From a virus (Duplodnaviria; Heunggongvirae; Uroviricota; Caudoviricetes), in IMG/VR virus record IMGVR_UViG_3300045988_013393, positions 1 through 44,246 of that record: 44,246 nt of DNA; one strand, written 5' to 3'. Each line of letters begins with the position of its first letter. Positions within the stretch are counted from its first letter, which is position 1. A model generated the notes under the pieces. The model did not search any database, was not told the origin of the DNA, and was given only the letters and a program-made list of their open reading frames with translations. The translations under genes and the position numbers were made by a program. Of the stretch, positions 1-44,246 are shown piece after piece.

Positions 1-84
1 ACCTGTTACACCACCTGTTACACCACCTGTTACACCACCTGTTACACCACCTGTTACACCACCTGTTACACCACCTGTTACACC
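1..84. repeat. Tandem direct repeat, 12-bp unit ACCTGTTACACC, 7 copies; array continues at window end (44192-44246)
   Basis: Seven perfect head-to-tail copies at 1-84; same unit and phase family at the 3' end of the window, consistent with a circular/permuted assembly broken inside the array. Confidence 0.9.
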
Positions 85-216
85 AGCACGGTATTGCACA
101 CCAGCTTTCCACGCCCGCCACGCGAGACGCGTCTTAACGTTCAGGTACCCTTTCTTTGAACCTTTGTTAACCGGCAGACCCTCGACTACAGCCCACCGTT
201 CAAATGCTTCTCTCAT
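1..216 (-). CDS. N-terminal part of small (GVTG)n repeat protein (ORF runs off window start, resumes at window end)
   Basis: ATG at 216-214 preceded by GAGGA RBS; reads MREAFERWAVVEGLPVNKGSKKGYLNVKTRLAWRAWKAGVQYRA then in-frame GVTG repeats through the 12-bp array; no stop before position 1. Confidence 0.4.
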   Translation of the reverse strand, partial: MREAFERWAVVEGLPVNKGSKKGYLNVKTRLAWRAWKAGVQYRAGVTGGVTGGVTGGVTGGVTGGVTGGVTG

Positions 217-219
217 AAC

Positions 220-411
220 TTAGTCCTCATCATCTTCTAAGTCAGGGTACACTATGAAATCTCCAGGCCTTTGCAACTCAGCGCCAGCCATAAAATAACC
301 AAGTGCTTCGGCCCTTTCGGAATCTGTTTTAAACTCAGACAAAGGGTATCTTTCATAGAACTTGTTAATTAATAACGCCTGGTCAAACTTAGTCGCATCG
401 TAACCGCTCAT
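220..411 (-). CDS. Hypothetical small protein (63 aa), acidic C-terminus LEDDED
   Basis: ORF with ATG start; ATGA overlap with the upstream gene (translational coupling). Confidence 0.45.
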   Translation of the reverse strand: MSGYDATKFDQALLINKFYERYPLSEFKTDSERAEALGYFMAGAELQRPGDFIVYPDLEDDED

Positions 412-2388: not shown

Positions 2389-4592
2389 ATATTGTTTTTG
2401 CAACGCTGCGTAACACTTTCGATAAAAACCCGGTAGCCCGTGAAATGCCACTGGAGCAGTTTGTAGAGTATGTCTGCGATACATCGAAGCGCCTGTCCGT
2501 AGACCCGTCATGGACTAAGGAAGAGTACGACGCGGCCAAGATTAAGCAGAAAGCTATTGCGCCGGTTGGCGGTCGCCGTAAGAACGCGATTCTGGAAGAC
2601 AGTGTGGTTAAGTTCGATTTCGACCATCTAAACCGTACCCAGTACCGCGACCTCACCCGCAAATTCAAGAACGCGCCGTTCTTCAATATTCTGCACACAA
2701 CGGCGTCGCACCAGCACGCGTGTAAAAACGGTGACTACGCTTTCCGCGTTCTTGTACCGGCCCGCACGCCGTTTAACTCTAACGACGCGTGGATGGTGCA
2801 ACGTGCTATTTGTGCTGAGTTAGAAATAGACGAAGCATTGCGCGACCACTGCACAGAAGATGGCAACCGCCTTATCTACCTGCCGCATAAAGAGTCGAAG
2901 ATAACGGTTACAGAAGGGCGTGTTATCCGTGCCGAGCGGTACATCAAGAAAGCCGAAGAAATGGGGTTGCGTAAGCGTGAAGCTAAGACCCTTGCTGCCG
3001 ATGAGCATGGGCTTAACGCGGATATAGCGCATTTCTGCGAAGCGGAGCTTGGCCTTGACGCTTTATCTTCCGGTCGCGGGTACGAAGTGCCTTGCCCTAA
3101 CGAACACCTGCACACCGGCAAAGGCTCCACCAGCATCATGCTCGACGGTAAAGAAGTGCGCTTCGTGTGCCAGCACACAAACAACGGTGCTTGCACTGAG
3201 CTTAACCGCCGACAACATTTGGCCCTGCGTATGTGCGGCCTTCCGGACGAGCTTAACGTAGACAAGCAACCTATCAGTATTAACAGCATTCGTGCGGCTC
3301 TGCCTGATTTACCGGATGAAGAGATTGAAGAACTGCACCGCACAGAGAACGAGGAGCCTGTAACTTGTACACTGGAAGACCTTGAAGACGATGACGAGTT
3401 ACCTGAACCGGTAAAGGCTGATTTCGTCGTTGAAGGGTACATGCCGTCGGATTGCATCTGGGACATCGTCGGGGAATCCGGCACATATAAATCATTCTAT
3501 ACGCTGGGTATGATGTACCTGAGCGCCGCAGGGTACCGGTTTGCAGGCGCTGATACACAGCGTTGCCACCATTTCTATATTGACGGTGAGGGCGGTGCTG
3601 CCACACGCACCCGTATTGATGCACTCGCGGCTAAATACGGCGAGGAAGGTAAAGATTATGTACATGTCATCGATATGGGCGAAGTTGGCAAACTGAAAAG
3701 CCTGATTAAGCTAATGCGAGAAACTGCGGGTGGCGAACCCATCGGCATGGTCGCGTTCGATACTCTCAACCAGACACTGGCCCTGACGATTGATAAGTTC
3801 GACGAGAACAGTTCATCAACGGCAATCGGCATGGGTAAAGTTATCGCCATCCTTAAAGAAGTACGTGACGCAACTAAAGCCGCGGTGGGCGTCGTCCACC
3901 ATACACCGAAGGGCGGAAAGAAAGCCCGTGGCAGCGGGGCGCTGTATGCGGGTGTCGATGTGGAACTGACAATAGAACGTGCAACCGACCGTCAGATAAA
4001 CGTATACCACTCGAAATTTAAGCACGGGCCTCAACAGAAAACGGTTGGCATGGTGCTGGAGTCCGTACAGTTCCGTGAAGCGCCGCCGCCGAAAGAGTAC
4101 CGCGCGGTTGAGTTCCTGGGCAGCACAGAGGAATACGGCACAATCGTAAACCTCGACCTGCCGGAACCACACAAGGCGCTTGTTCTGATGCCGTGGGGCT
4201 TCGAGCCGTTCAAAACTGACGAGGAGAAAGAGCGGGAAGAAGGGTTAACTAACGAAGGTAAACAAAAAGTAAAGGAAGAAGTTAAACGCGGCAGGGATGA
4301 AGTAAGGAAGGAGTCGATACTTTCGGCACTGGAAGACCTGCAACAGTCAGATGACACAGGTCGCGGTTTTACTCAGCAGCAGATAGTGGCCCGTTCCGGT
4401 GACTTTTCTGTGACTAACACCCATCTTGATAAAATGCTGAAAGATGGTGAACTAATGCTAGGCTGTGATGCTAATGGCGAAGTAGTACCGAGAACGTATC
4501 GTATACCTGAAAGAATAGGGGATAGATTAAGGCCGAAGACAATATACGAACCGAATGAAATGCTAGTGGTTACTGAGGAAGATTTGGAATAG
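2385..4592 (+). CDS. Putative primase-polymerase / P-loop helicase replication protein (735 aa)
   Basis: N-terminal DxD (FDFDH) and H-rich (HTTASHQH) motifs suggest an AEP-like primase; Cys/His cluster CPNEHLH...CQH...C; Walker A GESGTYKS, Walker B MVAFD; acidic C-terminus ending EEDLE. Confidence 0.6.
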   Translation: MNIVFATLRNTFDKNPVAREMPLEQFVEYVCDTSKRLSVDPSWTKEEYDAAKIKQKAIAPVGGRRKNAILEDSVVKFDFDHLNRTQYRDLTRKFKNAPFFNILHTTASHQHACKNGDYAFRVLVPARTPFNSNDAWMVQRAICAELEIDEALRDHCTEDGNRLIYLPHKESKITVTEGRVIRAERYIKKAEEMGLRKREAKTLAADEHGLNADIAHFCEAELGLDALSSGRGYEVPCPNEHLHTGKGSTSIMLDGKEVRFVCQHTNNGACTELNRRQHLALRMCGLPDELNVDKQPISINSIRAALPDLPDEEIEELHRTENEEPVTCTLEDLEDDDELPEPVKADFVVEGYMPSDCIWDIVGESGTYKSFYTLGMMYLSAAGYRFAGADTQRCHHFYIDGEGGAATRTRIDALAAKYGEEGKDYVHVIDMGEVGKLKSLIKLMRETAGGEPIGMVAFDTLNQTLALTIDKFDENSSSTAIGMGKVIAILKEVRDATKAAVGVVHHTPKGGKKARGSGALYAGVDVELTIERATDRQINVYHSKFKHGPQQKTVGMVLESVQFREAPPPKEYRAVEFLGSTEEYGTIVNLDLPEPHKALVLMPWGFEPFKTDEEKEREEGLTNEGKQKVKEEVKRGRDEVRKESILSALEDLQQSDDTGRGFTQQQIVARSGDFSVTNTHLDKMLKDGELMLGCDANGEVVPRTYRIPERIGDRLRPKTIYEPNEMLVVTEEDLE

Positions 4593-5766: not shown

Positions 5767-7004
5767 TTCTAAAAGAACGCGGTGGCAATAACGACGTACA
5801 CGCATTACTGTCGCCATCCGGTGCTAAAAAGTGGCTTACCTGCGCCGCATCGCTGGCCTGTGAAAAAGACATTCCAAATACGTCAGGTAAAGCCGCCGTA
5901 TTGGGTACCGCCATGCACACCATAGCTGAGATGCACTTAAACCAGTACATCAAAGGCACTGCGCTGCCGTTAGAGCGTGAAGTCGGCGCTTACGTGCTGG
6001 ATGAAGGTAAAGGCCAGATTAAGGCGCTAATCAGCCCGATGAAAGGCGCGGTACTGATTACGGCGGATATGATTGAGCAAGTGCGCAAGTATACCGACTA
6101 CTGCAAAGCGATTATCGATGTAGCGACTTACGCCAAGCTGGAAATGCGGGTAAATCTTACCGAGGTATTGCATCCGGGCTACGAAGGCGTTGAGACATTC
6201 GGAACCGCTGACCTTGTTGCCGTTCAGGAACTGGCGAACACCGAAGAGCACATGCTCATTATTGGCGACCTGAAAACAGGACGGCATCGTGTCGAAGCGA
6301 AAGAAAACAAGCAGCTTATGCTTTACGCGCTGGGTGTTTATCGCCGACTAAAGCGACGTTATAGCATAACAACCGTTCGTCTGGTCATCTTCCAGCCTTA
6401 CGCTGGGGGCGCGTCAGAGTGGGACATCTCGGTTGAGGGCCTTGAACTGTTCGCTAAGTTTGCGCAGAAACGCGCGCTGTTGGCCCTTGATGCTTATTCC
6501 CGCGGCAAGAAGAACCTGAAAGCGTCGGACTTCAAGCCGTCTGTCGATGGTTGTCAGTGGTGTCGGTTCTCTGAACAATGCGCTGCGCGTACAAAAACCG
6601 TTAACTCGGTACTGGCGGAAGAACTGGAAGACGATTTTGCGCTGGAACTTACGCCGGAGCAACTCGTAGCTGAGTATGAGAAGTTGCCGTTGTTGCGCCA
6701 GCACATCGACAAGGTTGAGAAAGCTATGGCCGCCGCGTTGCATTCCGGTAAGAAAGTGCCAGGGTACAAACTGGTTGAAGGTCGTCCTGGTAATCGTGCG
6801 TGGAAAGATGCGGAGAAAGTAGCAGAACTCTACGGCGACAAGCTGACTAAAGAAGTGCTCATGTCACCTACCGAAGCTGTTAAAGTCATACCGGAAGAAG
6901 AACTGAAAGACTTCATTACCCGTAAGCCCGGCGCGCCATGCGTCACAACGGCGGATGACAAACGTCCTGAGTGGAATCAGGTTAGTGAAGAAGATTTGGA
7001 ATAA
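5763..7004 (+). CDS. PD-(D/E)XK exonuclease, Cas4/RecB-like with Fe-S cysteine cluster
   Basis: N-terminal Cys (WLTCAAS), D...DLK motif (ADLVAV...IGDLKTG), QxxxY (QLMLYALG), CQWCRFSEQC cluster; C-terminus ends SEEDLE. Confidence 0.65.
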   Translation: MILKERGGNNDVHALLSPSGAKKWLTCAASLACEKDIPNTSGKAAVLGTAMHTIAEMHLNQYIKGTALPLEREVGAYVLDEGKGQIKALISPMKGAVLITADMIEQVRKYTDYCKAIIDVATYAKLEMRVNLTEVLHPGYEGVETFGTADLVAVQELANTEEHMLIIGDLKTGRHRVEAKENKQLMLYALGVYRRLKRRYSITTVRLVIFQPYAGGASEWDISVEGLELFAKFAQKRALLALDAYSRGKKNLKASDFKPSVDGCQWCRFSEQCAARTKTVNSVLAEELEDDFALELTPEQLVAEYEKLPLLRQHIDKVEKAMAAALHSGKKVPGYKLVEGRPGNRAWKDAEKVAELYGDKLTKEVLMSPTEAVKVIPEEELKDFITRKPGAPCVTTADDKRPEWNQVSEEDLE

Positions 7005-7008
7005 AGTG

Positions 7009-7037
7009 TTGACACCTGAATAGTTAGCTATTATATT
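7009..7037 (+). promoter_or_regulatory. Class A sigma70 promoter (TTGACA-N17-TATATT) with GAATAG-ttag-CTATTA palindrome
   Basis: Consensus -35/-10 spacing, upstream of the SSB-like gene. Confidence 0.6.
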
Positions 7038-7093
7038 TCTAATCACTGGCCGGGCAGCTTCCCGGAGTAAACTGAAAACTGAGGAATCGAGAT

Positions 7094-7720
7094 ATGGGTA
7101 TTAAACTGAATCTGCGTAAAGTAAACACTGCATGGGTTAACGTATTTGAACGCGAAAAAGACCGTGAAAACGATGACGGCTCAATCACTAAAGGCCAGTA
7201 CAGCGCAACGATTATCATGCCGCCGGACCATGCTCAAATCGACGCGCTCTACGACACTGTTTACGCTGTAGTCGAAGAAGCATTGGGTGCCGCCGCTGCC
7301 GAAAAATGGATGAAGTCTAACTACGGCGAAGGTAAGCACATGGATAAATGTGCGATTAAAGATATTGCTGAGCGCGACAATCCGTTTGAAGACTTCCCGG
7401 AAGGCTTCTACTTCAAAGCGAAGGCTCAGAAACAGCCACTGATTGTAACCTCTAAAAAAGGTGAGACTCAGGTAGAACAGGACTTCAACGTAGACGGCGA
7501 ACAGATTGAAGGGGAACAGGTTTACAGCGGCTGCGTTGCTAACGTAAGCGTCGAAATCTGGTTCAGCCAGAAATACAAAGTCCTCGGCGTCAATCTGCTG
7601 GCGATTAAATACGTTGGTGAAGGTAAAGCGTTTGGTGGTTCTAAAGTTGCTGCGAGCGTCGATGACCTGGAAGACGACGAAGAAGACGAAGCACCGCGCC
7701 GCGAACGTCGCCGCCGCTAA
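7094..7720 (+). CDS. Putative ssDNA-binding protein (208 aa) with acidic-then-basic C-terminal tail
   Basis: Position between nuclease and DNA polymerase; C-terminus DDLEDDEEDEAPRRERRRR; assignment by context and composition only. Confidence 0.4.
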   Translation: MGIKLNLRKVNTAWVNVFEREKDRENDDGSITKGQYSATIIMPPDHAQIDALYDTVYAVVEEALGAAAAEKWMKSNYGEGKHMDKCAIKDIAERDNPFEDFPEGFYFKAKAQKQPLIVTSKKGETQVEQDFNVDGEQIEGEQVYSGCVANVSVEIWFSQKYKVLGVNLLAIKYVGEGKAFGGSKVAASVDDLEDDEEDEAPRRERRRR

Positions 7721-7781: not shown

Positions 7782-9980
7782 ATGCCTAATCTATTGTATC
7801 TGGATACTGAGACATTCTCTGAAGCGGACTTAAAGAAAGTCGGATCGTATGCGTACGCGGAGCATCCGACAACCGAGATTATAATTTGTACATATGCCAT
7901 TGATGATGGGCCCGTAGAAGTATGGGATTGCACTTCCGAACCGGTAATGCCAATAAGCCTCCGCATTGCGCTGCGCAATGTTATGCGCGGACGTATGAGA
8001 ATTGTAGGTCATAACTTTTTAATGTTCGACAGGCTTGTTATGAAGCACTGCTGGGGCGTTGATATCAAGCCAAGAAACACCATTGACACGATGATTAGAG
8101 CGTTTCGTCACGCGTTGCCGGGTTCACTTGACGCATTGTGCGAAGTGCTGGGCGTATCTGCGGACAACGCGAAAGACAAACGCGGTAAAGCACTGATTCA
8201 GCGTTTTTCTAAACCGACGCCGAAGAACTACAAAATCCGCCGTTACACCGCCGAAACTCACCCAGATGAGTGGGCGCTGTTCATCAAGTACGCCGTGAGC
8301 GACATCACTGCGATGCGTGAAGTCTTCCATAAGCTGCCGCGTTGGGGTAACTCCGAGTTCGAAGACCGTGTACTGGAACTTGACCAGTTAATCAACGACC
8401 GCGGGTTTAAGGTTGATGTGGCGCTGGCGGAAGCTGCGATTGAGGCCGTAGAGAAACACAAGGCGCAGTTGCAGGAAGAAGCCCAACGCAAATACGGCGG
8501 CTCGCTAACTGGCAAAGACTTTCTACCTATTCTGCGGGAACTGGCCCCCGCGCACCGTATTCATAACGCGCAGAAGTCGACACTCAATGACCTGCTGGCG
8601 GATGATGATTTGCCAGATGACGCCCGCACGATTATCGAAATGCGCCTCGGGGCCGCGTCTACAGCATCGACGAAATATAACCCGCTGCTGCTGGGTCGCT
8701 CGTCGGACGACCGTCGTCGCGGTTGCTTGCAGTACGGCGGGGCAAAACGCACTTTGCGATGGGCGGGTAAAGGCTTCCAGCCGCAGAACCTGGCGCGCGG
8801 GTACTATCACGATGATGAACTGGATAAAGGCATTTCAGCGTTACTTAAGGGCCGTGCGCATCGCCGTTTTGATGTGGCCAAGCTAACGGCATCTACGGTT
8901 CGTAGCTGCATTATCCCGGAAGCCGGGCATAAGTTTGTCGTCGCCGATTACTCTAACGTTGAGGGTCGTGGGCTTGCGTGGCTGGCGGGCGAAGAAACCG
9001 CGCTCGATACGTTCCGCGCCGGACTGGATATTTACTGCGTAACCGCGGGCAAGATGTTTGGTATGGACCCTGATGACATTAAGAAAAACTTCAAGGAAAT
9101 CAGACAGATAGGCAAAGCATGCGAACTGGGTCTCGGCTACGAGGGCGGCGTCGGAGCGTTCGTTACGTTCGCCAAAAACTTAGGCCTCGACCTTATTGAG
9201 ATGGCAAAAACAATGGACGGGACTTTCCCCGACCACATCTGGGCTGCTACCGCACGTGGGTATGAGTGGGCGCGTATTCAGGAAGCCAAGCGACCACCGC
9301 ATCCCGGTGAAAAGGATGACCGACCATCATATATTCTGGACAAGAAAGTGTGGCGCACATGTGATGCAATCAAGCGTATGTGGCGCGAGTCACACCCGGA
9401 AACAGTAGCGTTCTGGCGCGACCTTAAAGATGGAATTTTAGCCGCTGTTCGTAATCCTGGTCGTGAATTTTGGGCCGGGGCACACTTGCGCCGGAATGGT
9501 GAAAGGGCTATCCGCATATGGCGTACCGTAGAATTTGATTCGTCGGGCAGGAAGGTTCCTGGCTGGTGGTTGTGTATGGAGTTGCCGTCAGGCCGTATCC
9601 TCTCGTATCCGGGAATCGGCGTTAGTGTGACAAAGGAAACAGACGAAGACGGACGGGTAAACACGAATGTGCGAATCAAGTATCAGGGTGAAAACCAGTT
9701 AACCCGCCAATGGACTACCCTGTACACCCACGGCGGCAAAGCCTGCGAAAACATTGTTCAGGCGCTGTGCCGTGATTTACTCGCATATGCGATGATTAAT
9801 GTTGAGGGTGGCGGGTATCCCATCGTGCTTTCGGTACACGATGAACTGGTGTGTGAAACTCCGGATACCCCAGAGTACACGGTGGCCGAACTGGAAAAAT
9901 TAATGTGTTCTCTGCCTGAGTGGGCAGAAGGCTTCCCTCTTGTCGCGGAAGGTGCGGAGATGAAGCGCTATGCTAAGTAA
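7782..9980 (+). CDS. DNA polymerase, family A, with 3'-5' exonuclease domain
   Basis: Exo I motif LYLDTETFS; polymerase motif A VVADYSNVEGR; motif C LSVHDELV. Confidence 0.85.
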   Translation: MPNLLYLDTETFSEADLKKVGSYAYAEHPTTEIIICTYAIDDGPVEVWDCTSEPVMPISLRIALRNVMRGRMRIVGHNFLMFDRLVMKHCWGVDIKPRNTIDTMIRAFRHALPGSLDALCEVLGVSADNAKDKRGKALIQRFSKPTPKNYKIRRYTAETHPDEWALFIKYAVSDITAMREVFHKLPRWGNSEFEDRVLELDQLINDRGFKVDVALAEAAIEAVEKHKAQLQEEAQRKYGGSLTGKDFLPILRELAPAHRIHNAQKSTLNDLLADDDLPDDARTIIEMRLGAASTASTKYNPLLLGRSSDDRRRGCLQYGGAKRTLRWAGKGFQPQNLARGYYHDDELDKGISALLKGRAHRRFDVAKLTASTVRSCIIPEAGHKFVVADYSNVEGRGLAWLAGEETALDTFRAGLDIYCVTAGKMFGMDPDDIKKNFKEIRQIGKACELGLGYEGGVGAFVTFAKNLGLDLIEMAKTMDGTFPDHIWAATARGYEWARIQEAKRPPHPGEKDDRPSYILDKKVWRTCDAIKRMWRESHPETVAFWRDLKDGILAAVRNPGREFWAGAHLRRNGERAIRIWRTVEFDSSGRKVPGWWLCMELPSGRILSYPGIGVSVTKETDEDGRVNTNVRIKYQGENQLTRQWTTLYTHGGKACENIVQALCRDLLAYAMINVEGGGYPIVLSVHDELVCETPDTPEYTVAELEKLMCSLPEWAEGFPLVAEGAEMKRYAK

Positions 9981-12807: not shown

Positions 12808-14799
12808 TCCTAGTTTTGTATACGTCCAGTTAAATGTCGTCGTGCCCTGACTTGTTATCGCTACATCCCTTCCTGATGCAGAAAACGTTATGAATGCCCC
12901 CACTTTTAATGGCGTTAGAGTTAACGCACCATCATACATCGCTAGTTGGGTAGAAGAGTAGTTGGTTCCGCTATCCGAAGCCCATACACTAATGAGATAC
13001 ATCCCCTGCATATTTGGCAATGTAAACAATGTTGTTTGCGTACTGGCATTTACTAATTGCGTTCCTTTTGCGGTGTAGAAACCGGGGGTCTGTAGACCAG
13101 CGGATGATACTTGTTGGGTGTACCCACCAGATACAAGACCAGATATCGGGGTGCAGAACCAGTTAACATTACCCTGACTAACTACTGATATAACGGGGGT
13201 GCCACCTGCAGGCGCGCGCCAGCGTCCGCTGTACACGTCAATTCGGGATGTTGCGTCCTTAGCGTATAACGTAACAGGGTATCCAGTTCCGATGTAAGTG
13301 ATTGCGTTCTCCGACAAGTCATCCTCAGAAGAGTCGATTATAACCTGACTTGTTCCGGATGCCTTTATGAAAGAAACGACACCACTTGCCGCGGGGGCTA
13401 CAGTTTTCATCTGGTTTTGATGAGCTGTTAAGCCAGATATTTTGCCATTAGTGTTCTCAAAATGGATAAGAGAACAATCGGAGCCGCCGTCTGTAGAAAT
13501 GATATTTCCTTCAGCATCAAATCCCATGATGTTAACCGAGTGCGAGTTAACGAAATGCAAACCGGCACTCCCGTAAGACCCTCCGGATACGCCTATCGCT
13601 GATTGGTCCATAGCGCAGTTGAGCATAGTTACAGACATGACGGCACCAAATTGATAAGGCGAGACGCATCCGGATGCGTAGCAAGTCTCCATCAAAATTG
13701 TTGTTCCTAGTGTTTTAATAAAGCCATCATGACAATTTCGCGCCCATACGTTTTGTAACTTAGTAAGGTAAGTTCCGGTGGTGTCGGAGAAACAGCGCCA
13801 TGCACCATGTACTGTGCAGTTTTTAATCTCAGACATTTCAAGACCAGTAGTACCGGCTTCAGTGGAGTAGAAATTAAATGCTATCTTCCCACTATTTCCG
13901 GTCGTGACGGTTGGCGTATCCCCCGGATTGTAGAATATATACAGTCCGTCGATGAACAGTTGAATCATTTTCGTCCCACCGGAAGAGCTGCCCTGAGCGA
14001 GCGCGAAAAGGGATATATCTCCGTCAACGGATATAAACGACTGGGCACGGTTGATGCCGTCGGTGTTCTCGCCGACGATTCTGACGCTATTATTGAAATA
14101 GATGGTGGAGTTAACGAAGCCCGTTCCTTTTGGGATTAGCACTGTCTTTTTGGAGTTGCATGCGGCCTGTATGGCAGCGTAATCAGTCGACTGGGTAAGA
14201 CTCGTAACAAAGGGGTATACCATCTGGGCTGCTGTAAGAGTAGAGAATTTCTCGCTTAGTGGGTGGATGTCACCATCCCATGTAGCGCCGAAGTCATAAA
14301 TACTTACAGCATCACTTACCTTGCTATGTAGGGTTCTCCCAACGGCTCCGGCCAGTACAGATTTAACCCCGACCATGGCGTCGCCTAGTTGCACATCGTC
14401 CGTGTTTGCTAAATCATCGCGTAGATATGGGTCGGTCTGCGGCTTCCAGTTAGCGTTACCGACCGGGTTAAACGATGCAGGGACAACAACCGGAAGCGTA
14501 CCCGCGTATGAGTACCACGTTTTACTCACCGGGTCATAAACAATTTTGTCACGGTCATTAACAGTTAGCGTGCCGCCGGTAGAAAAGTCCCACGATACGG
14601 GAGAAAAACCAGCGTCACGCAGTACCGCCGGGAGGGTCTTCTGCGTCTGGCCTGTAACAGCATTGGTCGCGTAATCAATATCTGCACCACCAGCAACCCC
14701 GCCTGCTTTACCGGTGATAACCTCGATTTCGAAAATCTGGTGTTTACGTGCGATTTGCATCGACTCCAGACTTACAACATCACCACATCCGCTTGACAT
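12805..14799 (-). CDS. Tailspike / tail fibre receptor-binding protein (664 aa)
   Basis: Last gene of tail module; GAGGA RBS; Gly/Ser/Thr/Asn-rich central region typical of beta-helix tailspikes. Confidence 0.6.
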   Translation of the reverse strand: MSSGCGDVVSLESMQIARKHQIFEIEVITGKAGGVAGGADIDYATNAVTGQTQKTLPAVLRDAGFSPVSWDFSTGGTLTVNDRDKIVYDPVSKTWYSYAGTLPVVVPASFNPVGNANWKPQTDPYLRDDLANTDDVQLGDAMVGVKSVLAGAVGRTLHSKVSDAVSIYDFGATWDGDIHPLSEKFSTLTAAQMVYPFVTSLTQSTDYAAIQAACNSKKTVLIPKGTGFVNSTIYFNNSVRIVGENTDGINRAQSFISVDGDISLFALAQGSSSGGTKMIQLFIDGLYIFYNPGDTPTVTTGNSGKIAFNFYSTEAGTTGLEMSEIKNCTVHGAWRCFSDTTGTYLTKLQNVWARNCHDGFIKTLGTTILMETCYASGCVSPYQFGAVMSVTMLNCAMDQSAIGVSGGSYGSAGLHFVNSHSVNIMGFDAEGNIISTDGGSDCSLIHFENTNGKISGLTAHQNQMKTVAPAASGVVSFIKASGTSQVIIDSSEDDLSENAITYIGTGYPVTLYAKDATSRIDVYSGRWRAPAGGTPVISVVSQGNVNWFCTPISGLVSGGYTQQVSSAGLQTPGFYTAKGTQLVNASTQTTLFTLPNMQGMYLISVWASDSGTNYSSTQLAMYDGALTLTPLKVGAFITFSASGRDVAITSQGTTTFNWTYTKLG

Positions 14800-14811: not shown

Positions 14812-17367
14812 TTAACTAAAACCGTTGCTGAATCCGTCGGAGAAACCGCGACCGAAAGGCGCGACGCCGTCGTATTTATAGAAATCTGCTTCATAGTTAA
14901 TCCCGGTAATCTTAACCGTTCTGTCGTCTCCGGGGTCAACTGTAGAAACAAGAATCATCTGAGCATTATGCCTTGCTTCGTTACCGAATGAAAACTCAGT
15001 TTTTAGTGCGCTATTCCCTGTGTATATCGCCTCTTGAGGCGCAGAGAGCATAACCACTTCACGGTCGTGGCTTCCAGGCACAACAGCAACACTTTGAACT
15101 CCGCCGTCTCTCTTCTTAAGAATCAGTGAGTGGTCATCCCCCGGAGTAAACGTAACCGGCTGAGAAAGAGTAAGGGTAAGCCCATTAACGGCAACGACAT
15201 AACCATCTTGAGGTGCTACTCGCGAGCCTTTAACTACGCTTATTGCCCGTCCTGGAAGCACAAAAACCCCTTCTTCTGTCGCCGTGAATGATACCGTCAC
15301 CTTCTTCAACAGGTTCTTCTGGTACCGACGGTACGCCGCCCAGTACGCCTGACGATAATTACGTATACCTTTAGAGTCATACGTTTCTGTGTTAACACCG
15401 CCCTCGGCGGGAATGCTGATGGTCTCTTTTACGTTAGTATCTGGGTCGATGTAGGAGAACTTAAGACTATCGTATACCTGAGCGTCGTTGAATGTGCGCG
15501 TCCACTTTTCCGAAGCTGTTGTCTTACTTCGATGTGTGAATACCATTTCCGGCCCCATACGCGGGCGCTCGAAATCCAGTAATATGTCTTGCCCTTTACG
15601 ATATGGAGTGCAGAAAATAGCATCGGCTATTGTGCTGATGATATCCTGCATGGTCATTTTATAGTCGTCAAAAGTGTAGCAGAATTGACCCGCCTCCACG
15701 TTACCGAAATAATTCTCAATCTCGGTCTGAGTCGCTAACAACTTGTCCATATTGGATGTTGTTAGGTTGAGATTACCTACTACCGGGTCACGGGCGAGAC
15801 GTATTAATGATTGAATGGCCTGAGTATTCGGTGTCATTACGGTGTCGAATACACCATTACCGAGGTATTTGTACACCATCTCTGTGGCGACCATACGTAA
15901 CTGTGGTTGCTTAATCTCTGCGGCCCGCGGCGTCTGCTTACGTGCCGAGTGTACGGTAGTACGATTGCCGTAATGTGGCGTAGTGTCACGGACCTGACCG
16001 TAAAGGTTGATATAGGAAACCTCGTCTACCACGGTGCCCTCGAAATCAAGGTCCAGGTTGGTAACACGACGGGCACGTACCCTAACTTTCGACCTCATGG
16101 GCAAGTCGGCGTAAATAGTAACTCCGGTGTAGTCGGCGGACCGACCAGATATAACGGCCTGTTTTGAATAGATACTCCCGTATGGGGCACCGGTTTCATC
16201 GAGTAGTTGGTATTGGAGTTCAATAGTTACCGACGTACGCAATTTACTGCCGTTGTCTTTATACATACCGTTAGCGGCAGCGATGTTGACTACTACGCGT
16301 TCAACTTCCAGGCGGTTTAAGGTGGTCCAGTCGGTTAATGTTCTTTCATACGTATCCACGGGGCCTACCCACGTGTCACTTCTCTGGGAAAGTGAATAGG
16401 TGGTTGAGCCTAAAGCAGCCCAATTAGACGCGCCGCCGGTGTCGACCCGCAGCTCGAAGTTATCGACATAAAGAACACGAAAGTTGCCGTTGGTATTTGT
16501 TACGTCCGGAACGTCAAAGTTATTGAACGACGCGGTGTCACCAACAGATAATATTTCCGCGAAGCCAGAATCCCCCGTGTCGTCATACAGGTATCCAATT
16601 TTTGTAGCAGAGTCATATCTCACGCGGCCCGTGTCGCTTGGGTTGACCCGAATATCGTTCTGGGCTTTAAGAACGGCTCCATCTACTTCATTAGACGCGA
16701 TAGTTATATAAAGATTCTGATTGATAGGTTCCCCCACCAGAAGCTGCGGGGTATTTGTATTGTTGGGGGATGTAAACGGCGCGTACACCGCGACAGAGGT
16801 CCCCGTAATCTCCTGTACCTTAGTATCGCCGTCGGTAATATCTTCGGCCCTGATGTCCAGATACCCACGACCGGCATCGTAGTATCCGTATTCAATAATG
16901 CGACCAGATTCATCGAATATTTTATAGGTAGTCATGAGGTCATTAGGGATAGTCTGGACTCTGCCGCAAATATCATACGACCGTTCATATGGACGGGGTT
17001 TATTGTTTCGGTCCGTCAGGCTGTTGTTGGGGGACTCAGCCTGCTGGTTCGCTAAACTCGTTTTAGGCGTTTTCTGCGACGGAGAAATCAACTTGGTAAC
17101 AAATTTAAGCACACCCAAAGGGTCCAGGAGTTTACCCAGAAAACCGCCACCGCCACCAGCGCCTTCGATAATATGGAAAACATCGTCTTCTTTCAGCGCT
17201 TCGAAATCTTCAGTTACTTCCGTGTCCTCGCCGATCTCGCCACGGTAAATACGTACAGGCACCCCGTCGGGGATGTTAGCGACGACGTATTCCATCGGCG
17301 GTACGTTGTGCCGTTCGCGGTCGAAAGTACCGTCTTCGTTACGGGTGTAATGTAATGTCAGCGCCAA
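14812..17367 (-). CDS. Tail tip / central fibre protein (lambda gpJ-like; start uncertain, TTG at 17367 with GGAGA RBS)
   Basis: Large protein following gpK/gpL-like genes in lambda order; ORF track 14812..17442. Confidence 0.6.
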   Translation of the reverse strand: MALTLHYTRNEDGTFDRERHNVPPMEYVVANIPDGVPVRIYRGEIGEDTEVTEDFEALKEDDVFHIIEGAGGGGGFLGKLLDPLGVLKFVTKLISPSQKTPKTSLANQQAESPNNSLTDRNNKPRPYERSYDICGRVQTIPNDLMTTYKIFDESGRIIEYGYYDAGRGYLDIRAEDITDGDTKVQEITGTSVAVYAPFTSPNNTNTPQLLVGEPINQNLYITIASNEVDGAVLKAQNDIRVNPSDTGRVRYDSATKIGYLYDDTGDSGFAEILSVGDTASFNNFDVPDVTNTNGNFRVLYVDNFELRVDTGGASNWAALGSTTYSLSQRSDTWVGPVDTYERTLTDWTTLNRLEVERVVVNIAAANGMYKDNGSKLRTSVTIELQYQLLDETGAPYGSIYSKQAVISGRSADYTGVTIYADLPMRSKVRVRARRVTNLDLDFEGTVVDEVSYINLYGQVRDTTPHYGNRTTVHSARKQTPRAAEIKQPQLRMVATEMVYKYLGNGVFDTVMTPNTQAIQSLIRLARDPVVGNLNLTTSNMDKLLATQTEIENYFGNVEAGQFCYTFDDYKMTMQDIISTIADAIFCTPYRKGQDILLDFERPRMGPEMVFTHRSKTTASEKWTRTFNDAQVYDSLKFSYIDPDTNVKETISIPAEGGVNTETYDSKGIRNYRQAYWAAYRRYQKNLLKKVTVSFTATEEGVFVLPGRAISVVKGSRVAPQDGYVVAVNGLTLTLSQPVTFTPGDDHSLILKKRDGGVQSVAVVPGSHDREVVMLSAPQEAIYTGNSALKTEFSFGNEARHNAQMILVSTVDPGDDRTVKITGINYEADFYKYDGVAPFGRGFSDGFSNGFS

Positions 17368-19333: not shown

Positions 19334-21670
19334 TTAATACCCCGGCTGGTTTCGTGTAGCCCGGCGGGACTTGGAGATTGCACTGTTGCTGTCTTGTAAC
19401 GCCGCCGATACTGTTTCACTGATGATAACACGTAACCGCCCTTCGTCGTCACGCTCTGTAACGGCGGAATCAACTCGTCCGGTGGTGTTGTTGACGATTG
19501 TCACGCTGTCACCGCCTGACTTGTTGCCGTTCTCGCCCATAATCTGGCGCATCTGTTCTGCGGTACGGACGCGTGACGCACCTGCCGGCATAATAACTTC
19601 GGGCTTGTTACGTTCTGCAATGGTGGATAGCTGCCCGGCAGCTAAGTTACCACCCTGTTCACGGGCCGAACGAATCTTGCTGATGTTAGCGAGACCTGCC
19701 GCTACCGCTGTAGCTGCTGCTATCGGCCCAAGTATCCAACCAACAAAAGGAATCGCGGACGCAGATTTATAAGCCTCGATGGCGGATGTGTATGTGGCGA
19801 TGGTGGCCTGGGCGATAGCAAACGCTTTATAAGCGGTAGACGCTTCGCCAAGCGACGATTTAATATTATCCGCCATCATTCCGAAAGCGTTACCGGTAGC
19901 GTTGGCACGTTTCAAAGCATACTGGTCGTTTATAGCATTAACCGCAGCCTGGTACTGCTCCTCGTTAATAAGGTTCTGTTCGCGATATCGGTCTGCAACG
20001 TCAAGTTTTTGTTGTTCCTGAATCTCCAAAAGCTCAAGCTCTGCGGCATTCTGACCCATAATCTGAGCCATGAAGTCTTCACCTTTCTGGTTCTTCTTCT
20101 GTCGTTCTTTCTTCCGCTTGGCGAGTTCTTCCTGGCGAGCGGTGTCCGCCTCCAACATAATCTGAGTTTTAGCGTTCTCGTATTGCTGGTCGCTAAGAAG
20201 CTGATTGCCGTAAAACTCCTGTAGCTTGGTTAGCTGCTGTTCCTGGTTGGCTTCTATTTTCTGGAATACGTCATCATTGAGATGAATCGACTGGTAGTAG
20301 AAATCCTCAGCGGCTTTCTTCTGGCGCTTGAACGCATCTGCGGCTTTCTTAGCGGCTTTTGCACCTGCGCTATCATCTTCGGATCCGCCACCAGTACCGG
20401 TTACCTTAAATTTACTAAGACCTTCTTCCTTAGCGGCTTCTTTGTCGATGTCATATGCCGCGCGTTTAAGCGCGACGATATTTTGCTGAGCCTCCACCTG
20501 TTCGCGGAAACTTTTACGGGTCAGGTCCGCAACATCGCGCTGAGTATCCAGTGCCATCCCTAGCTGGAAGTTAATGTTTTTTGCTACGTCTACAGATTCC
20601 CCTGGTGTGAAGGCAGCTTTCACCAACCGGCCAGCGTCCTGTGCCCCTTTAACCATATCTTCAAAGAAGCGCTCCATCGCGGTAAATTCTTCTGCGATGA
20701 AATCGAGCGCATCGGCAGCTGATTCCGCGATGGTTGTCGCCGTTTGTTCGCCGCTGTCGGTGATACTTTTACTGCTAAAATCCCAAAGTTCATTCAGCCC
20801 GTTTATTGCGTCGCCTACGAAACCAAATGCCGCGTCGAACGACATCTCTATCGCGCTGCCCACTTCTGACGCGATGTCACCCCACATACGCATCTCAGCG
20901 GTGAGTTCGCCGGATGCTACCTGTGCGTTAAGTTCCTGGATTAAATCATCGATGTACCGGATAGGTTCCGCAAGAGCACCAACATCAAGGCTGGTGGCCA
21001 GTGTCATTTTTAACTGCGACCATGAGTCGCTGGCACTGGCGATGGCCCCGTTAAGTGTGTTGGCCTGGTCCGCCATAGCCCCCGCGAAGTTTACGTTACC
21101 AATGTTGAGCAGGTATTGCTCGATGTCGGCAGCGCTCTTCTTAACTACCGTAGTGGTGCCCTGGAATGTAAATTCAACATCGTTTTTGTTCTGCTTGGCC
21201 TTGATACCAAATTCTTTAAGGCGCTCAAATTCAAATGTACTAGCGTCCGCAACGGCCTCAATCATCTGATTAAGGTCTTTACCCATAGCAGCGGCAGTGT
21301 TGCCATAGGAGCGCAACGCTTCTTCTGAGGGGGTAAGGCCGAGAGCCACCAGTTTACGGAATCCCTCTACCGCCTGTTCAAGGCCATACGGAGTGTCGCG
21401 CGCGAAGTCTTGCAGGATGCTTAACGCCTGTCTTGCCCCCTGCGTGCTTCCGGTTAGCGTTTTCAGGCTGGCGGACATCTTGTCCAGTTGCCGTTGGGAG
21501 TCTACCAGTTCCTGTGCGGCCTTGTACGCGGTCGCGGCGACAATTGAAGCGAGTCCAGCTACGGCTGCCCCCGCTACTTTTGCCGACTTGGAGAGATTAT
21601 CAAGACGGTCCGATGTAGCTTTCGCGCCTTGCTCTGATACCTTTACAACTAAACTAGCTACATCAGCCAT
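19334..21670 (-). CDS. Tail tape measure protein (778 aa)
   Basis: Long Ala/Gln/Glu-rich coiled-coil protein directly after G/T chaperones; C-terminal hydrophobic segment. Confidence 0.8.
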   Translation of the reverse strand: MADVASLVVKVSEQGAKATSDRLDNLSKSAKVAGAAVAGLASIVAATAYKAAQELVDSQRQLDKMSASLKTLTGSTQGARQALSILQDFARDTPYGLEQAVEGFRKLVALGLTPSEEALRSYGNTAAAMGKDLNQMIEAVADASTFEFERLKEFGIKAKQNKNDVEFTFQGTTTVVKKSAADIEQYLLNIGNVNFAGAMADQANTLNGAIASASDSWSQLKMTLATSLDVGALAEPIRYIDDLIQELNAQVASGELTAEMRMWGDIASEVGSAIEMSFDAAFGFVGDAINGLNELWDFSSKSITDSGEQTATTIAESAADALDFIAEEFTAMERFFEDMVKGAQDAGRLVKAAFTPGESVDVAKNINFQLGMALDTQRDVADLTRKSFREQVEAQQNIVALKRAAYDIDKEAAKEEGLSKFKVTGTGGGSEDDSAGAKAAKKAADAFKRQKKAAEDFYYQSIHLNDDVFQKIEANQEQQLTKLQEFYGNQLLSDQQYENAKTQIMLEADTARQEELAKRKKERQKKNQKGEDFMAQIMGQNAAELELLEIQEQQKLDVADRYREQNLINEEQYQAAVNAINDQYALKRANATGNAFGMMADNIKSSLGEASTAYKAFAIAQATIATYTSAIEAYKSASAIPFVGWILGPIAAATAVAAGLANISKIRSAREQGGNLAAGQLSTIAERNKPEVIMPAGASRVRTAEQMRQIMGENGNKSGGDSVTIVNNTTGRVDSAVTERDDEGRLRVIISETVSAALQDSNSAISKSRRATRNQPGY

Positions 21671-37052: not shown

Positions 37053-38303
37053 TTAAAGTGCGAAAGTCACCGGGATGTTGATTACTGGTTTAACCACCGG
37101 CATCTCGTAAACTACAGGATAGCCCAGGGCATCTGCCATATGGTCGATGATGCCGTCTTTGGATGGCTCCCCGTTATCGTCATATGCCTGCTGCTCCAGC
37201 GTCTTCGCTATCTCAGGGCATAAGTGGTCGTTAACCCACAGCTTACCTTTTTCCAGTGCGGTATTCACCGCTAAAACACGGTCTTTAACCGGCGGGTTGG
37301 CGGATTTAGCGCGAACATCGAACCCCGCCTGCTGTAGTAAGGCAATATCGGAGATTGACGCCGAGTTGGTTTTGCGGTTCTTGCCACTGGCGTCGGGGTA
37401 AACGACGATGCGGTGGCCTTGCGACTTCCACTTCTCGGTAATTACGCGCACGGTATCCGGCGTATCGAACAGGCCTTTCAGTTCTGCTACTGCATGCCAG
37501 CCGTCTTTACGTTGCACATACACGGCGCTGGCGTTCTTCGTAACGTTGAAGTCCTGCCCGATGTACAGCGTGTCGCCAGGTTGAATTGTCTCTTTGCTGC
37601 GGTGCTTACGGCGGTCGTATGCGTAATACACGCTGCCGGAGGTCAGGTTAACGAACTCACCGTTCAGATACGCGTTAATCAGTTGCGCGGGGTAAGTCTC
37701 TGTCAGCGAGCTGATGTAATCCGGCGGCAGGAACCGCGCATTCTCGTGTGTGGAGGCCTGCACCATAGAGTAACTTGGCGTAGGATTCTCTTTGAACTTG
37801 GAGTAGACGAACTTGAACCCTTCCGGCGTTGTGGTGACGGAGATGTGGTTAATTACACCCGGGATAACCAGACGCATACGGGCTACGATTTTGTTCCACG
37901 CCAGTTCAGCTTTCTCGCGACTCAGTACGTCCAACTCATCCACGACCGCCGCAGCGATTTTGAAACCAACTATCGAGCCGGGGTTATCCATCGAACGGCA
38001 GATAACCGTACCGAGCACCGTCTTACCGCGGGTAACAACGACTTCTTTGTCGCCAGATTTAACCAGCACATCGAGGCCGAGAAGGTTAGCCGCTTCCTCG
38101 AATGTCGGGTAGAAGATGTCGCGGATGGCAGGATACGTCGGACCGAAGTAGCCAAGGCGCGTACCGGGGTGCTTGAGCATGAACGTAAGCAGGTCCAGAC
38201 AGCCTACGAATGTCTTGCCGCTGCCGAAGCCCCCGACGTAGGCTTTGTATTTGTTATCGCAATTCAGGAACAGTGCCTGGGGCGCGGATAGCTGGATACT
38301 CAT
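37053..38303 (-). CDS. Terminase large subunit
   Basis: Walker A GGFGSGKT, Walker B VVDELD, C-terminal nuclease region; ATGA-coupled to the small subunit. Confidence 0.8.
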   Translation of the reverse strand: MSIQLSAPQALFLNCDNKYKAYVGGFGSGKTFVGCLDLLTFMLKHPGTRLGYFGPTYPAIRDIFYPTFEEAANLLGLDVLVKSGDKEVVVTRGKTVLGTVICRSMDNPGSIVGFKIAAAVVDELDVLSREKAELAWNKIVARMRLVIPGVINHISVTTTPEGFKFVYSKFKENPTPSYSMVQASTHENARFLPPDYISSLTETYPAQLINAYLNGEFVNLTSGSVYYAYDRRKHRSKETIQPGDTLYIGQDFNVTKNASAVYVQRKDGWHAVAELKGLFDTPDTVRVITEKWKSQGHRIVVYPDASGKNRKTNSASISDIALLQQAGFDVRAKSANPPVKDRVLAVNTALEKGKLWVNDHLCPEIAKTLEQQAYDDNGEPSKDGIIDHMADALGYPVVYEMPVVKPVINIPVTFAL

Positions 38304-38845
38304 TCCTCTACCTCGCCCATATTCGTTGTCACGATTTTACCTACAGGCTCCGCGACACTGAAAATAATCTCAGTCGGTGCTGTTTCTTCGGTGGACTCAA
38401 CAGGTTTCTCTTTGCTTAAGCCCAGCTTAGCCGCAGCAAACGTAGCGGAGATACCGGCGGCGCCTGTCTCAGTGAAATACGCCTCTTCCAGCGCCTGAGC
38501 GGTTTCATAGGCTTCTGCAAACGCCGGAATCTCACGCAACCACAGCTTAATAATAGGGATAGTTACGCCGATGTGTAAGGCGAAGCGGGCCAGTGACGGG
38601 GGTTTATCCTGAATCAGCGGGCGTTCGTCACCCTTGGACGTAGGTACGAGTTCCCATGAGTTGCGGTCAAAGAACCGGATTAACTCGTCGCAATAGTCCG
38701 GGTCCCACAATGCCGCAGAATTACGGGATGACTGGTAAAGGCTCTGTTTACCCCGCGGTCGTTTACGGCGACGGTTGGCACTAACAGCCTCTTCATGTGC
38801 AGCTTGCACCACCTCAGGTGATGGTTGCTTAAGTGTAAGTTTCAT
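38300..38845 (-). CDS. Terminase small subunit (start at ATG 38845; ORF track extends to 38884)
   Basis: Directly upstream of and coupled to the large subunit; HTH-like segment; GGGGG RBS before MKLTLKQ. Confidence 0.55.
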   Translation of the reverse strand: MKLTLKQPSPEVVQAAHEEAVSANRRRKRPRGKQSLYQSSRNSAALWDPDYCDELIRFFDRNSWELVPTSKGDERPLIQDKPPSLARFALHIGVTIPIIKLWLREIPAFAEAYETAQALEEAYFTETGAAGISATFAAAKLGLSKEKPVESTEETAPTEIIFSVAEPVGKIVTTNMGEVEE

Positions 38846-38972
38846 ATAACCCCCTGACATATGCGTCTGACCATCAGAGCGCATCAGACGCGCCCTACGC
38901 GTCTAAAGGGATTATATAAGGGGATTGGGCTGGATGTACAGAAAAGCCCTCCGTAGAGGGCTTGATGGTTGG

Positions 38973-43900: not shown

Positions 43901-44071
43901 TTATTGGTGTTTTAAAGATAATCGTTCACTGCGAATCCAGTAGTACCTCGGGCGTCGTACCCACTGACGCCATCGCATAACACGGTACTTGTTGCCGTCT
44001 GACGCAACAATAAGCCCGAATCGCTTTTCTCCGTTTCTACCGGTCCAGGTTACGATGTCATTCAGTTTCAT
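43901..44071 (-). CDS. Small basic ORF (56 aa)
   Basis: ATG 44071 with CAGGAGA RBS; Arg/Trp-rich C-terminal half. Confidence 0.3.
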   Translation of the reverse strand: MKLNDIVTWTGRNGEKRFGLIVASDGNKYRVMRWRQWVRRPRYYWIRSERLSLKHQ

Positions 44072-44124: not shown

Positions 44125-44163
44125 AAAAATGAGAAAAATGATACGCTGCTGTGTAGCAGCGTA
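44125..44163 (-). terminator. Intrinsic terminator on minus strand (TACGCTGCT-acac-AGCAGCGTA + T-rich tail)
   Basis: Perfect 9-bp stem followed on minus strand by TCATTTTTCTCATTTTT; lies just after the stop of the repeat ORF. Confidence 0.55.
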
Positions 44164-44185: not shown

Positions 44186-44246
44186 CTATTGACCTGTTAC
44201 ACCACCTGTTACACCACCTGTTACACCACCTGTTACACCACCTGTT
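44186..44246 (-). CDS. C-terminal part of (GVTG)n repeat protein; stop at 44188-44186
   Basis: Minus-strand GVTG frame through the repeat ends with Gln then TAG just outside the array; joins ORF 1-216 only if the replicon is circular/permuted. Confidence 0.35.
   Translation of the reverse strand, partial: TGGVTGGVTGGVTGGVTGQ
44192..44246. repeat. Tandem direct repeat ACCTGTTACACC, 4 full copies plus 7 bp, continuous with array at 1-84
   Basis: Same unit as window start; window ends mid-unit. Confidence 0.9.

Follow-up and report, generated by a model that had tools for sequence, protein, structure and literature searches.

Two questions are raised by a viral DNA that begins and ends in the same short repeat: (i) is the repeat a physical feature of the genome or a by-product of its assembly and (ii) if it is physical, does it belong to a protein or to the DNA. 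The stretch analysed here, 44,246 nt in length and referred to below as the window, carries the 12-bp unit ACCTGTTACACC without a mismatch seven times at positions 1–84, and carries it again, equally perfect, in 4.6 copies at positions 44192–44246. TRF reports a period of 12 with 100% matches for the first block, all seven units being identical (7.1 copies over 1–85, score 170; base 85 prolongs the repeat match by chance). The exact unit is absent elsewhere in the window, and 11 of the 14 sites that match it with two or fewer mismatches (3.1 expected in the window) are the array itself. On the minus strand the unit reads GGTGTAACAGGT and encodes Gly-Val-Thr-Gly. The first-pass annotation had proposed that the repeats form the tail of a small protein whose gene wraps around the window junction, with pac or origin iterons and an assembly artefact as alternatives.

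The two blocks are not equivalent. The last 55 nt of the window are an exact copy of the first 55 nt; prefix and suffix coincide at 7, 19, 31, 43 and 55 nt, with 55 nt the longest. A k-mer length of 55 is standard for short-read SPAdes-type assemblies. The terminal 4.6 copies are not additional units but the overlap that a de Bruijn assembler working at k = 55 leaves on a circularised contig, an assignment that follows from the 55-nt identity and from a second contig of the strain (L053, described below) that reads through the join. Trimming the overlap leaves a circle of 44,191 bp in which the array has, at face value, 7 units and not 11.6. Both blocks counted in the first-pass annotation are perfect repeats, but the one at the window end is an overlap copy of the other.

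What is read across the junction depends on how the ends are joined. Joined untrimmed, the array falls out of register and the minus-strand ORF reads ...GVTG NRWC NRWC...; only the overlap-trimmed join yields GVTG-Gln-stop, within a 73-aa minus-strand ORF composed of a 44-aa domain, (GVTG)7, Gln and a stop. Here the ORF leaves the array through CAA (Gln, 44191–44189) and the stop codon TAG (44188–44186), and the same CAATAG follows the array in L053, phage Snoke, L043 and other loci. The Gln-stop exit that had been proposed for a circular genome is thus correct for the trimmed join and for L053, and is out of frame in the untrimmed one.

The window flanks are ~90–98% identical to Kagunavirus phages (Guernseyvirinae, Escherichia coli siphoviruses of 41–45 kb), and in Kagunavirus records, those of cultured relatives included, the two window ends are neighbours at an internal position. 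The window itself is a Kagunavirus genome that was assembled as a circle. Further assemblies of the same strain were found by exact-protein look-ups. The MEGAHIT contig L053, from a human gut run, differs from the window by 2 mismatches in 12.3 kb (99.98% identical) and continues uninterrupted from the conserved domain through 4 units, CAATAG and the hairpin into the next gene. An ENA assembly of 44,220 bp, scaffold_235 (L057/L061), is 100% identical over 5.2 kb taken from its two ends; both of its ends fall inside the array and overlap by 55 nt, from which a count of 5 units follows. A Logan contig, presumably assembled at k = 31, likewise ends inside the array. Because L053 matches the window through the junction, both the continuity of the genome across it and the in-frame Gln-stop exit are demonstrated, and the circular continuity that the first-pass annotation had supposed is now observed directly.

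Relatives of the window also differ at a second, distant site. An HNH_3 endonuclease gene (163 aa) is present in some close relatives (L052:10614–11105 and L055:5732–6223) between the PDDEXK exonuclease and ssDNA-binding protein genes, at a location equivalent to ~7000–7100 of the window. The gene is absent from the window, L053 and L054 and looks like a presence/absence polymorphism of a homing-endonuclease-type gene.

The same-strain assemblies disagree on the number of units, with 4 in L053, 5 in scaffold_235 and 7 in the window, so that the nominal 7 is not reliable. This disagreement could be wholly a consequence of assembler behaviour, each count lying at or near the shortest traversal permitted by the k-mer of its assembly. 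A lower bound can be placed on the window itself. A de Bruijn contig can hold only k-mers that are present in the reads, so that a 55-mer made of repeat alone can be there only if real molecules carry an array of 55 nt or more; the fixed phases at which the array is entered and left raise this to at least 61 nt, i.e. at least 5 units in the sample from which the window was assembled. From this we infer a copy number of at least 5, nominally 7.

It might be argued that the phage truly has about 2–4 units and that the assembler looped around a cycle in its graph. The contig ends are indeed artefactual, the three same-strain assemblies disagree and no record of a cultured phage has more than 2 units: the best matches among 50,697 phage records cover 83% of the junction query, equivalent to 2 units, and in an exact-sequence look-up of the ORF protein with 1–10 units the 2-unit form alone occurs in the protein collection. 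An identical domain allele also exists with 2 units. Set against this are the 61-nt bound, equivalent to 5 units, and the observation that two independent k = 55 assemblies break at exactly the same place. In addition, an unrelated Kagunavirus contig (L004/L046) has 6 units internally and L043 has 3; because these loci carry multiple units internally, expansion at the locus is real, and we consider a wholly artefactual expansion extremely improbable. The assembly-artefact alternative applies to the end block and to the contig break, but the conserved ORF and its in-frame tail are real.

The history of the expansion can be followed in part through codon 23 of the ORF (148–150, minus strand), which encodes Gly in the window, Glu in nearly all homologues and Ala in a few. 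The rare G23 allele is also found with 2 units (P0107, a 38.6-kb NCBI contig), with 4 (L053) and with 5 (scaffold_235). Sharing of this allele suggests that the expansion is recent and took place within one lineage.

The ORF that enters the array begins, as had been proposed, at a minus-strand ATG at 216 with a GAGGA Shine–Dalgarno sequence (224–228, minus strand) 7 nt upstream. Its 44-codon N-terminal domain, MREAFERWAVVEGLPVNKGSKKGYLNVKTRLAWRAWKAGVQYRA (85–216, minus strand), continues in frame into the GVTG units. The GAGGA falls within the 3′-terminal part of the upstream gene, which stops at 222–220, and the ATG is positioned 3 nt past that stop, an arrangement that suggests translational coupling with the upstream gene. 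The equivalent RBS is annotated in phage Snoke, together with a terminator, and the Snoke protein CPT_Snoke_060 (53 aa) ends ...RAGMTGGVTGQ*.

Support for this ORF as a gene comes from three sources. Over the N-terminal 39 codons the pooled pN/pS is 0.057 (39 distinct DNA sequences), with variable sites at codon positions 1/2/3 numbering 10/7/27. Residues 1–42, scored directly, match PHROG 15836 (no function annotated) with E = 2.1e-31. Pfam PF26207 (‘Phage_phiTE_015’, no function annotated) is precomputed on 57 of 59 homologues, and it is through these matches that the ORF is assigned to the family; a Pfam scan of the ORF and its neighbours with a library version without PF26207 gave no match. 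Given the low pN/pS, the PHROG match and the presence of PF26207 on homologues, the small minus-strand ORF is a real conserved gene. A profile search of 1.8 billion representatives places the module AFExWA...T..AW.AWQA at the N-terminus of many small phage proteins; the C-terminal parts behind it vary, and DUF551 is often among them. In an AlphaFold model of the ORF protein, two helices are predicted at residues 2–12 and 27–47 with modest confidence (pLDDT 60) and the repeat tail is of low confidence (pLDDT block means of about 42–53). The (GVTG)n tail is accordingly modelled as a disordered appendage beyond the conserved domain.

The module is found in several other arrangements. In most Kagunavirus loci the PF26207-type module and DUF551 are encoded by separate genes that are adjacent or slightly overlapping (L002:517–849; L004:3329–3674). 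In-frame fusions of the two, 110–119 aa in length, are present among metagenomic proteins (P0026, P0028, P0034, P0039, P0041 and P0044), and the module is tandemly duplicated in three variants (P0001–P0003). These fusions and duplications could represent real domain shuffling or indel and sequencing differences. The 90%-identity cluster of P0008, which contains 53-aa phage proteins, also lists a 432-aa tetratricopeptide-repeat protein from Gimesia fumaroli (P0111), probably as a database clustering artefact.

On the far side of the Gln-stop is the perfect hairpin that the first-pass annotation had called a terminator (44125–44163, minus strand). Its 9-bp stem, TACGCTGCT/AGCAGCGTA, contains 5 GC pairs and encloses a 4-nt loop (stem and loop 44163–44142), followed by the T-rich tail TCATTTTTCT. 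The element scores as an intrinsic terminator, its fold has z = −4.5 relative to shuffled sequence, and the hairpin is kept in nearly all Kagunavirus loci examined; we predict a Rho-independent terminator at this position.

The array is located on the minus strand at the end of a small-gene cluster that precedes the lysis and packaging genes. The upstream gene of the same minus-strand operon (220–411; 63 aa) belongs to PHROG 27229 and the next gene downstream of the terminator (43901–44071, minus strand; 56 aa), which is contiguous with the array in L053, belongs to PHROG 9384; neither family has an annotated function. The large terminase gene (37053–38303, minus strand) and a putative small terminase ORF just upstream of it (38300–38884) are both about 5.3 kb from the array. 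At 1250–1610 the window contains a divergent intergenic region between the minus-strand small-gene operon (to 1247) and plus-strand HTH/helicase-primase replication genes (from 1607), a probable site of early promoters. GC content is lower over the first 2 kb of the window than over the remainder (0.445 vs 0.50).

We compared the locus with entries in a protein database and with 38 IMG/VR loci, aligned from the conserved domain to the hairpin. Residues past about position 40 differ widely among the homologues, many of which end AVMNTR, LSVANPR or similar and have no unit. Tails that do contain units have one (49 aa), two (53 or 57 aa) or three (P0001; L043), and the units of relatives include the non-synonymous variants GMTG, GITG, GVAG, GVKG and GATG. 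The expectation that homologous loci would differ in unit number while preserving the frame is borne out (1, 2, 3, 4 and 7 units), which gives comparative support to the first-pass proposal that protein length varies through slippage, and the in-frame counts among relatives and assemblies together are 1, 2, 3, 4, 5 and 7.

In most Kagunavirus genomes the interval from the conserved domain to the hairpin includes a DUF551 gene, which ends in one of two ways: (i) ...CCG GAA GTG TGA TGTTCAATAG, in which the unit is a degenerate relic or (ii) ...CTG GTG TAA CAG GTC AAT AG, in which the TAA contained in an intact unit serves as the stop. The majority of Kagunavirus loci show no more than the degenerate relic (GAAGTGTGATGTTCAATAG) or one unit. 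Untranslated units follow the DUF551 stop in one copy in L010, L013, L023 and L041, in two copies in L020, L021, L025 and L032 and in six perfect copies in L004 (L046 is the same contig). In loci without DUF551, the window among them, the PF26207-type gene enters the unit in the GGT-GTA-ACA-GGT frame, and the array is in frame in every such locus. In both contexts, every locus with units has a perfect one immediately ahead of CAATAG, a regularity that could reflect a DNA- or RNA-level constraint. Expansion to at least 6 units is likewise seen in both, translated in the window (nominally 7) and untranslated in L004.

Matches from a pattern scan beyond L004 (L046) and L043 are unrelated coincidences with no bearing on the locus. 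A 36-nt pattern occurs by chance at L003/L045:9118–9360, where an ORF of an AT-rich giant-virus MAG contig encodes a long (PVTP)n linker, and in a Leeuwenhoekiella gene (L051:5390–5425); it is also present in freshwater metagenome ORFs with long GVTG/GTTG repeats (L044, L047, L048 and L050). A search for literature on Kagunavirus together with tandem repeats found none.

Does the repeat belong to the protein? A flexible (GVTG)n linker or tail of variable length might tune the PF26207-type early protein, with slippage producing functional diversity in the manner of a contingency locus. The in-frame position of the array in all DUF551-less loci is in keeping with such a role, as are the differences between near-identical genomes that share the rare G23 allele (2, 4, 5 and 7 units), and the strong purifying selection on the domain indicates that the protein is made. 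The common frame may, however, be inherited from one deletion event. The unit also reaches six copies where it is not translated as GVTG (L004), most members of the family are without a GVTG tail and the residues past about 40 are unrelated between variants. Nor is a 12-bp unit able to switch the gene on and off: a phase-variable contingency locus of that kind does not describe an array at the 3′ end of a gene in which the frame and the Gln-stop are kept at any copy number.

The seven identical units are what is expected of a recent expansion. Because the units are identical, because those of relatives vary non-synonymously and because an untranslated array expands equally, the evidence argues against selection on the peptide, and we regard a selected protein feature as improbable. 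The unit sits after the DUF551 stop in other genomes and is equally expandable there (six copies in L004), and for this reason we interpret the repeat as a DNA-level feature: the unit belongs to the DNA beside the terminator and not to the protein, and it is translated incidentally. The view of the repeat as a protein feature, with which the first-pass annotation began, is not upheld.

An array that belongs to the DNA may also act as DNA or RNA. It could, for example, consist of iterons of a replication origin or be a pac site, serve as a recombination signal similar to Chi, bind a protein that alters the activity of the adjacent terminator or be transcribed into a decoy RNA like the pseudo-ToxI of phage ΦTE. 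The unit is kept beside the terminator whatever the upstream gene or reading frame, it is expanded in both translated and untranslated contexts and the array, as predicted from the terminator, would be transcribed as the 3′ end of the operon. Repeat expansion can be adaptive, as the ΦTE precedent illustrates (PMC3475682), and two independent expansions to at least 6 units in different contexts could reflect selection for array length. Multiple copies are nevertheless not required, given how many Kagunavirus loci retain the relic or one unit.

The individual candidates also fit poorly. Origin iterons are difficult to reconcile with a unit number that ranges from 0 to 7 and with the absence of an intact unit, or the presence of just one, in most Kagunavirus loci, and the motif is not dispersed in the genome. 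A pac site or physical end is at odds with the distance to the terminase genes and with the internal position of the junction in all relatives; moreover, PhageTerm detected no termini in the relative fBC-Eco01 (PMC9825357), which fits a circularly permuted genome that would assemble as a circle. The pac and iteron readings listed as alternatives in the first pass are thus set aside. Similarity to Chi is at best 7/8 at the array entry (GCTGGTGT) and 6/8 at the unit junctions (ACAGGTGG); the array has no exact Chi octamer (GCTGGTGG), and GCTGGTGT is not enriched. For the RNA-based possibilities, an Rfam search of the array gave no match at E ≤ 1, shuffled sequences fold at least as stably as the array RNA (z = +1.2) and the ToxI pseudoknot unit, at 36 nt, is much longer than the 12-nt unit here, so that RNA repeats of the ToxI or pseudo-ToxI type do not describe it.

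Exact Chi itself occurs five times in the window, on both strands, at 3127–3134(−), 9562–9569(+), 14687–14694(−), 17153–17160(−) and 20990–20997(+). The expected number is 1.09, and 0 of 100 shuffles reach 5.

Taken with the evidence on both sides, a function of the array as DNA or RNA is in our estimation very improbable. The related proposal that the unit beside the terminator is a functional, expandable DNA or RNA element of Kagunavirus we likewise regard as unlikely. If it were true, the unit might, for example, control how often transcription passes the terminator into the small-gene, lysis and packaging genes beyond it, to a degree set by the number of units, or might act as a decoy that titrates a host factor or a defence protein, and the independent expansions to at least 6 units in the window and in L004 would reflect selection and not drift.

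The explanation that we consider highly probable is a slippage-prone minisatellite beside the terminator, placed where gene cassettes meet and incidentally translated in this genome, combined with an assembly cut within the array. Because the array is longer than the k-mer (55), the assembler opened the circle inside the minisatellite, and the 55-nt block at the window end is the leftover of this opening step. In DUF551-bearing genomes the unit supplies the TAA stop of DUF551 and otherwise goes untranslated. Where DUF551 is missing, probably through deletion, the 44-aa two-helix PF26207-type module runs into the unit and gains a (Gly-Val-Thr-Gly)n-Gln tail, which we take to be neutral. Once at least two perfect units lie side by side, slipped-strand mispairing in replication, the mechanism we favor, or unequal recombination could add or remove whole units. 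Such changes would be tolerated because 12 is a multiple of 3 and because the disordered tail lies outside the conserved domain. The copy number would then drift, to give the 0–3 units of most relatives, the 6 of the untranslated array in L004 and the 5 or more (nominally 7) of the window.

The locus has practical consequences for the interpretation of viral contigs. When a repeat is longer than the k-mer, the assembly acquires a spurious ‘direct terminal repeat’, the contig is cut within a gene and the copy number becomes unreliable, which matters both for completeness callers that use terminal repeats and for gene callers that lose wrap-around ORFs. Among E. coli phages, the locus provides a VNTR of small size in a genus that is common and under development for therapy and synthetic biology, and it could serve as a strain-typing marker. 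Finally, it presents one DNA unit that is protein-coding in some genomes and lies behind a stop in others, after gain or loss of DUF551.

Comparison with known systems places each component of the locus. The identity of window prefix and suffix over exactly 55 nt is that of the k-mer terminal overlap, or ‘direct terminal repeat’, of circular contigs, and scaffold_235, a second assembly of the strain, has a 55-nt overlap at the same place. The overlap of the window differs from the usual case in consisting entirely of tandem repeat, and the usual trimming gives here one of several copy numbers that are consistent with the graph.

A phage tandem repeat that expands has a parallel in the pseudo-ToxI escape locus of ΦTE, where a transcribed repeat grew from 1.5 to 4.5–5.5 units, attributed to strand slippage (Blower et al. 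2012, PMC3475682); the repeat unit described for ToxI of the ToxIN system is a 36-nt pseudoknot (PMC3475682). The window differs in its 12-nt unit, in having no predicted structure and no Rfam match and in showing no toxin–antitoxin link. The phiTE_015 of the Pfam name might suggest a connection with pseudo-ToxI of ΦTE, but it has nothing to do with that locus.

At the level of the protein, the N-terminal 42 residues match PHROG 15836 and close homologues carry PF26207, but the family is defined without a repeat tail, and only some genomes, all of them Kagunavirus, have the GVTG tail. The closest counterpart is CPT_Snoke_060 of phage Snoke (QEG07006.1, a hypothetical protein of 53 aa), which has the same gene, position and RBS arrangement as the window, the same ...RAG-(unit)-Q* ending and the same terminator hairpin, with junction DNA about 94% identical; further counterparts are found in Shashou, Sciku, LM02P1 and vB_VIPECOMC04. 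Snoke differs in having 2 units, the first of them degenerate (GMTG GVTG), compared with an array in the window of nominally 7 perfect units, of which the k-mer argument above requires at least 5.

Coding VNTRs arise by slipped-strand mispairing and occur, for example, in frame in bacterial surface proteins. The array of the window has the properties of a coding VNTR or minisatellite: its units are perfect, follow one another head to tail and have a period of 12, which is divisible by 3 and in frame with a gene under purifying selection, and their number varies between close relatives whose flanks are identical. It differs from the familiar examples in lying in a tiny early phage gene and not in a surface or receptor-binding protein, in having a unit that is translated in some Kagunavirus genomes and untranslated in others and in that its variation is seen between genomes. 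The locus adds one more case to a familiar class of features, the variable-number repeats, and involves no new mechanism.
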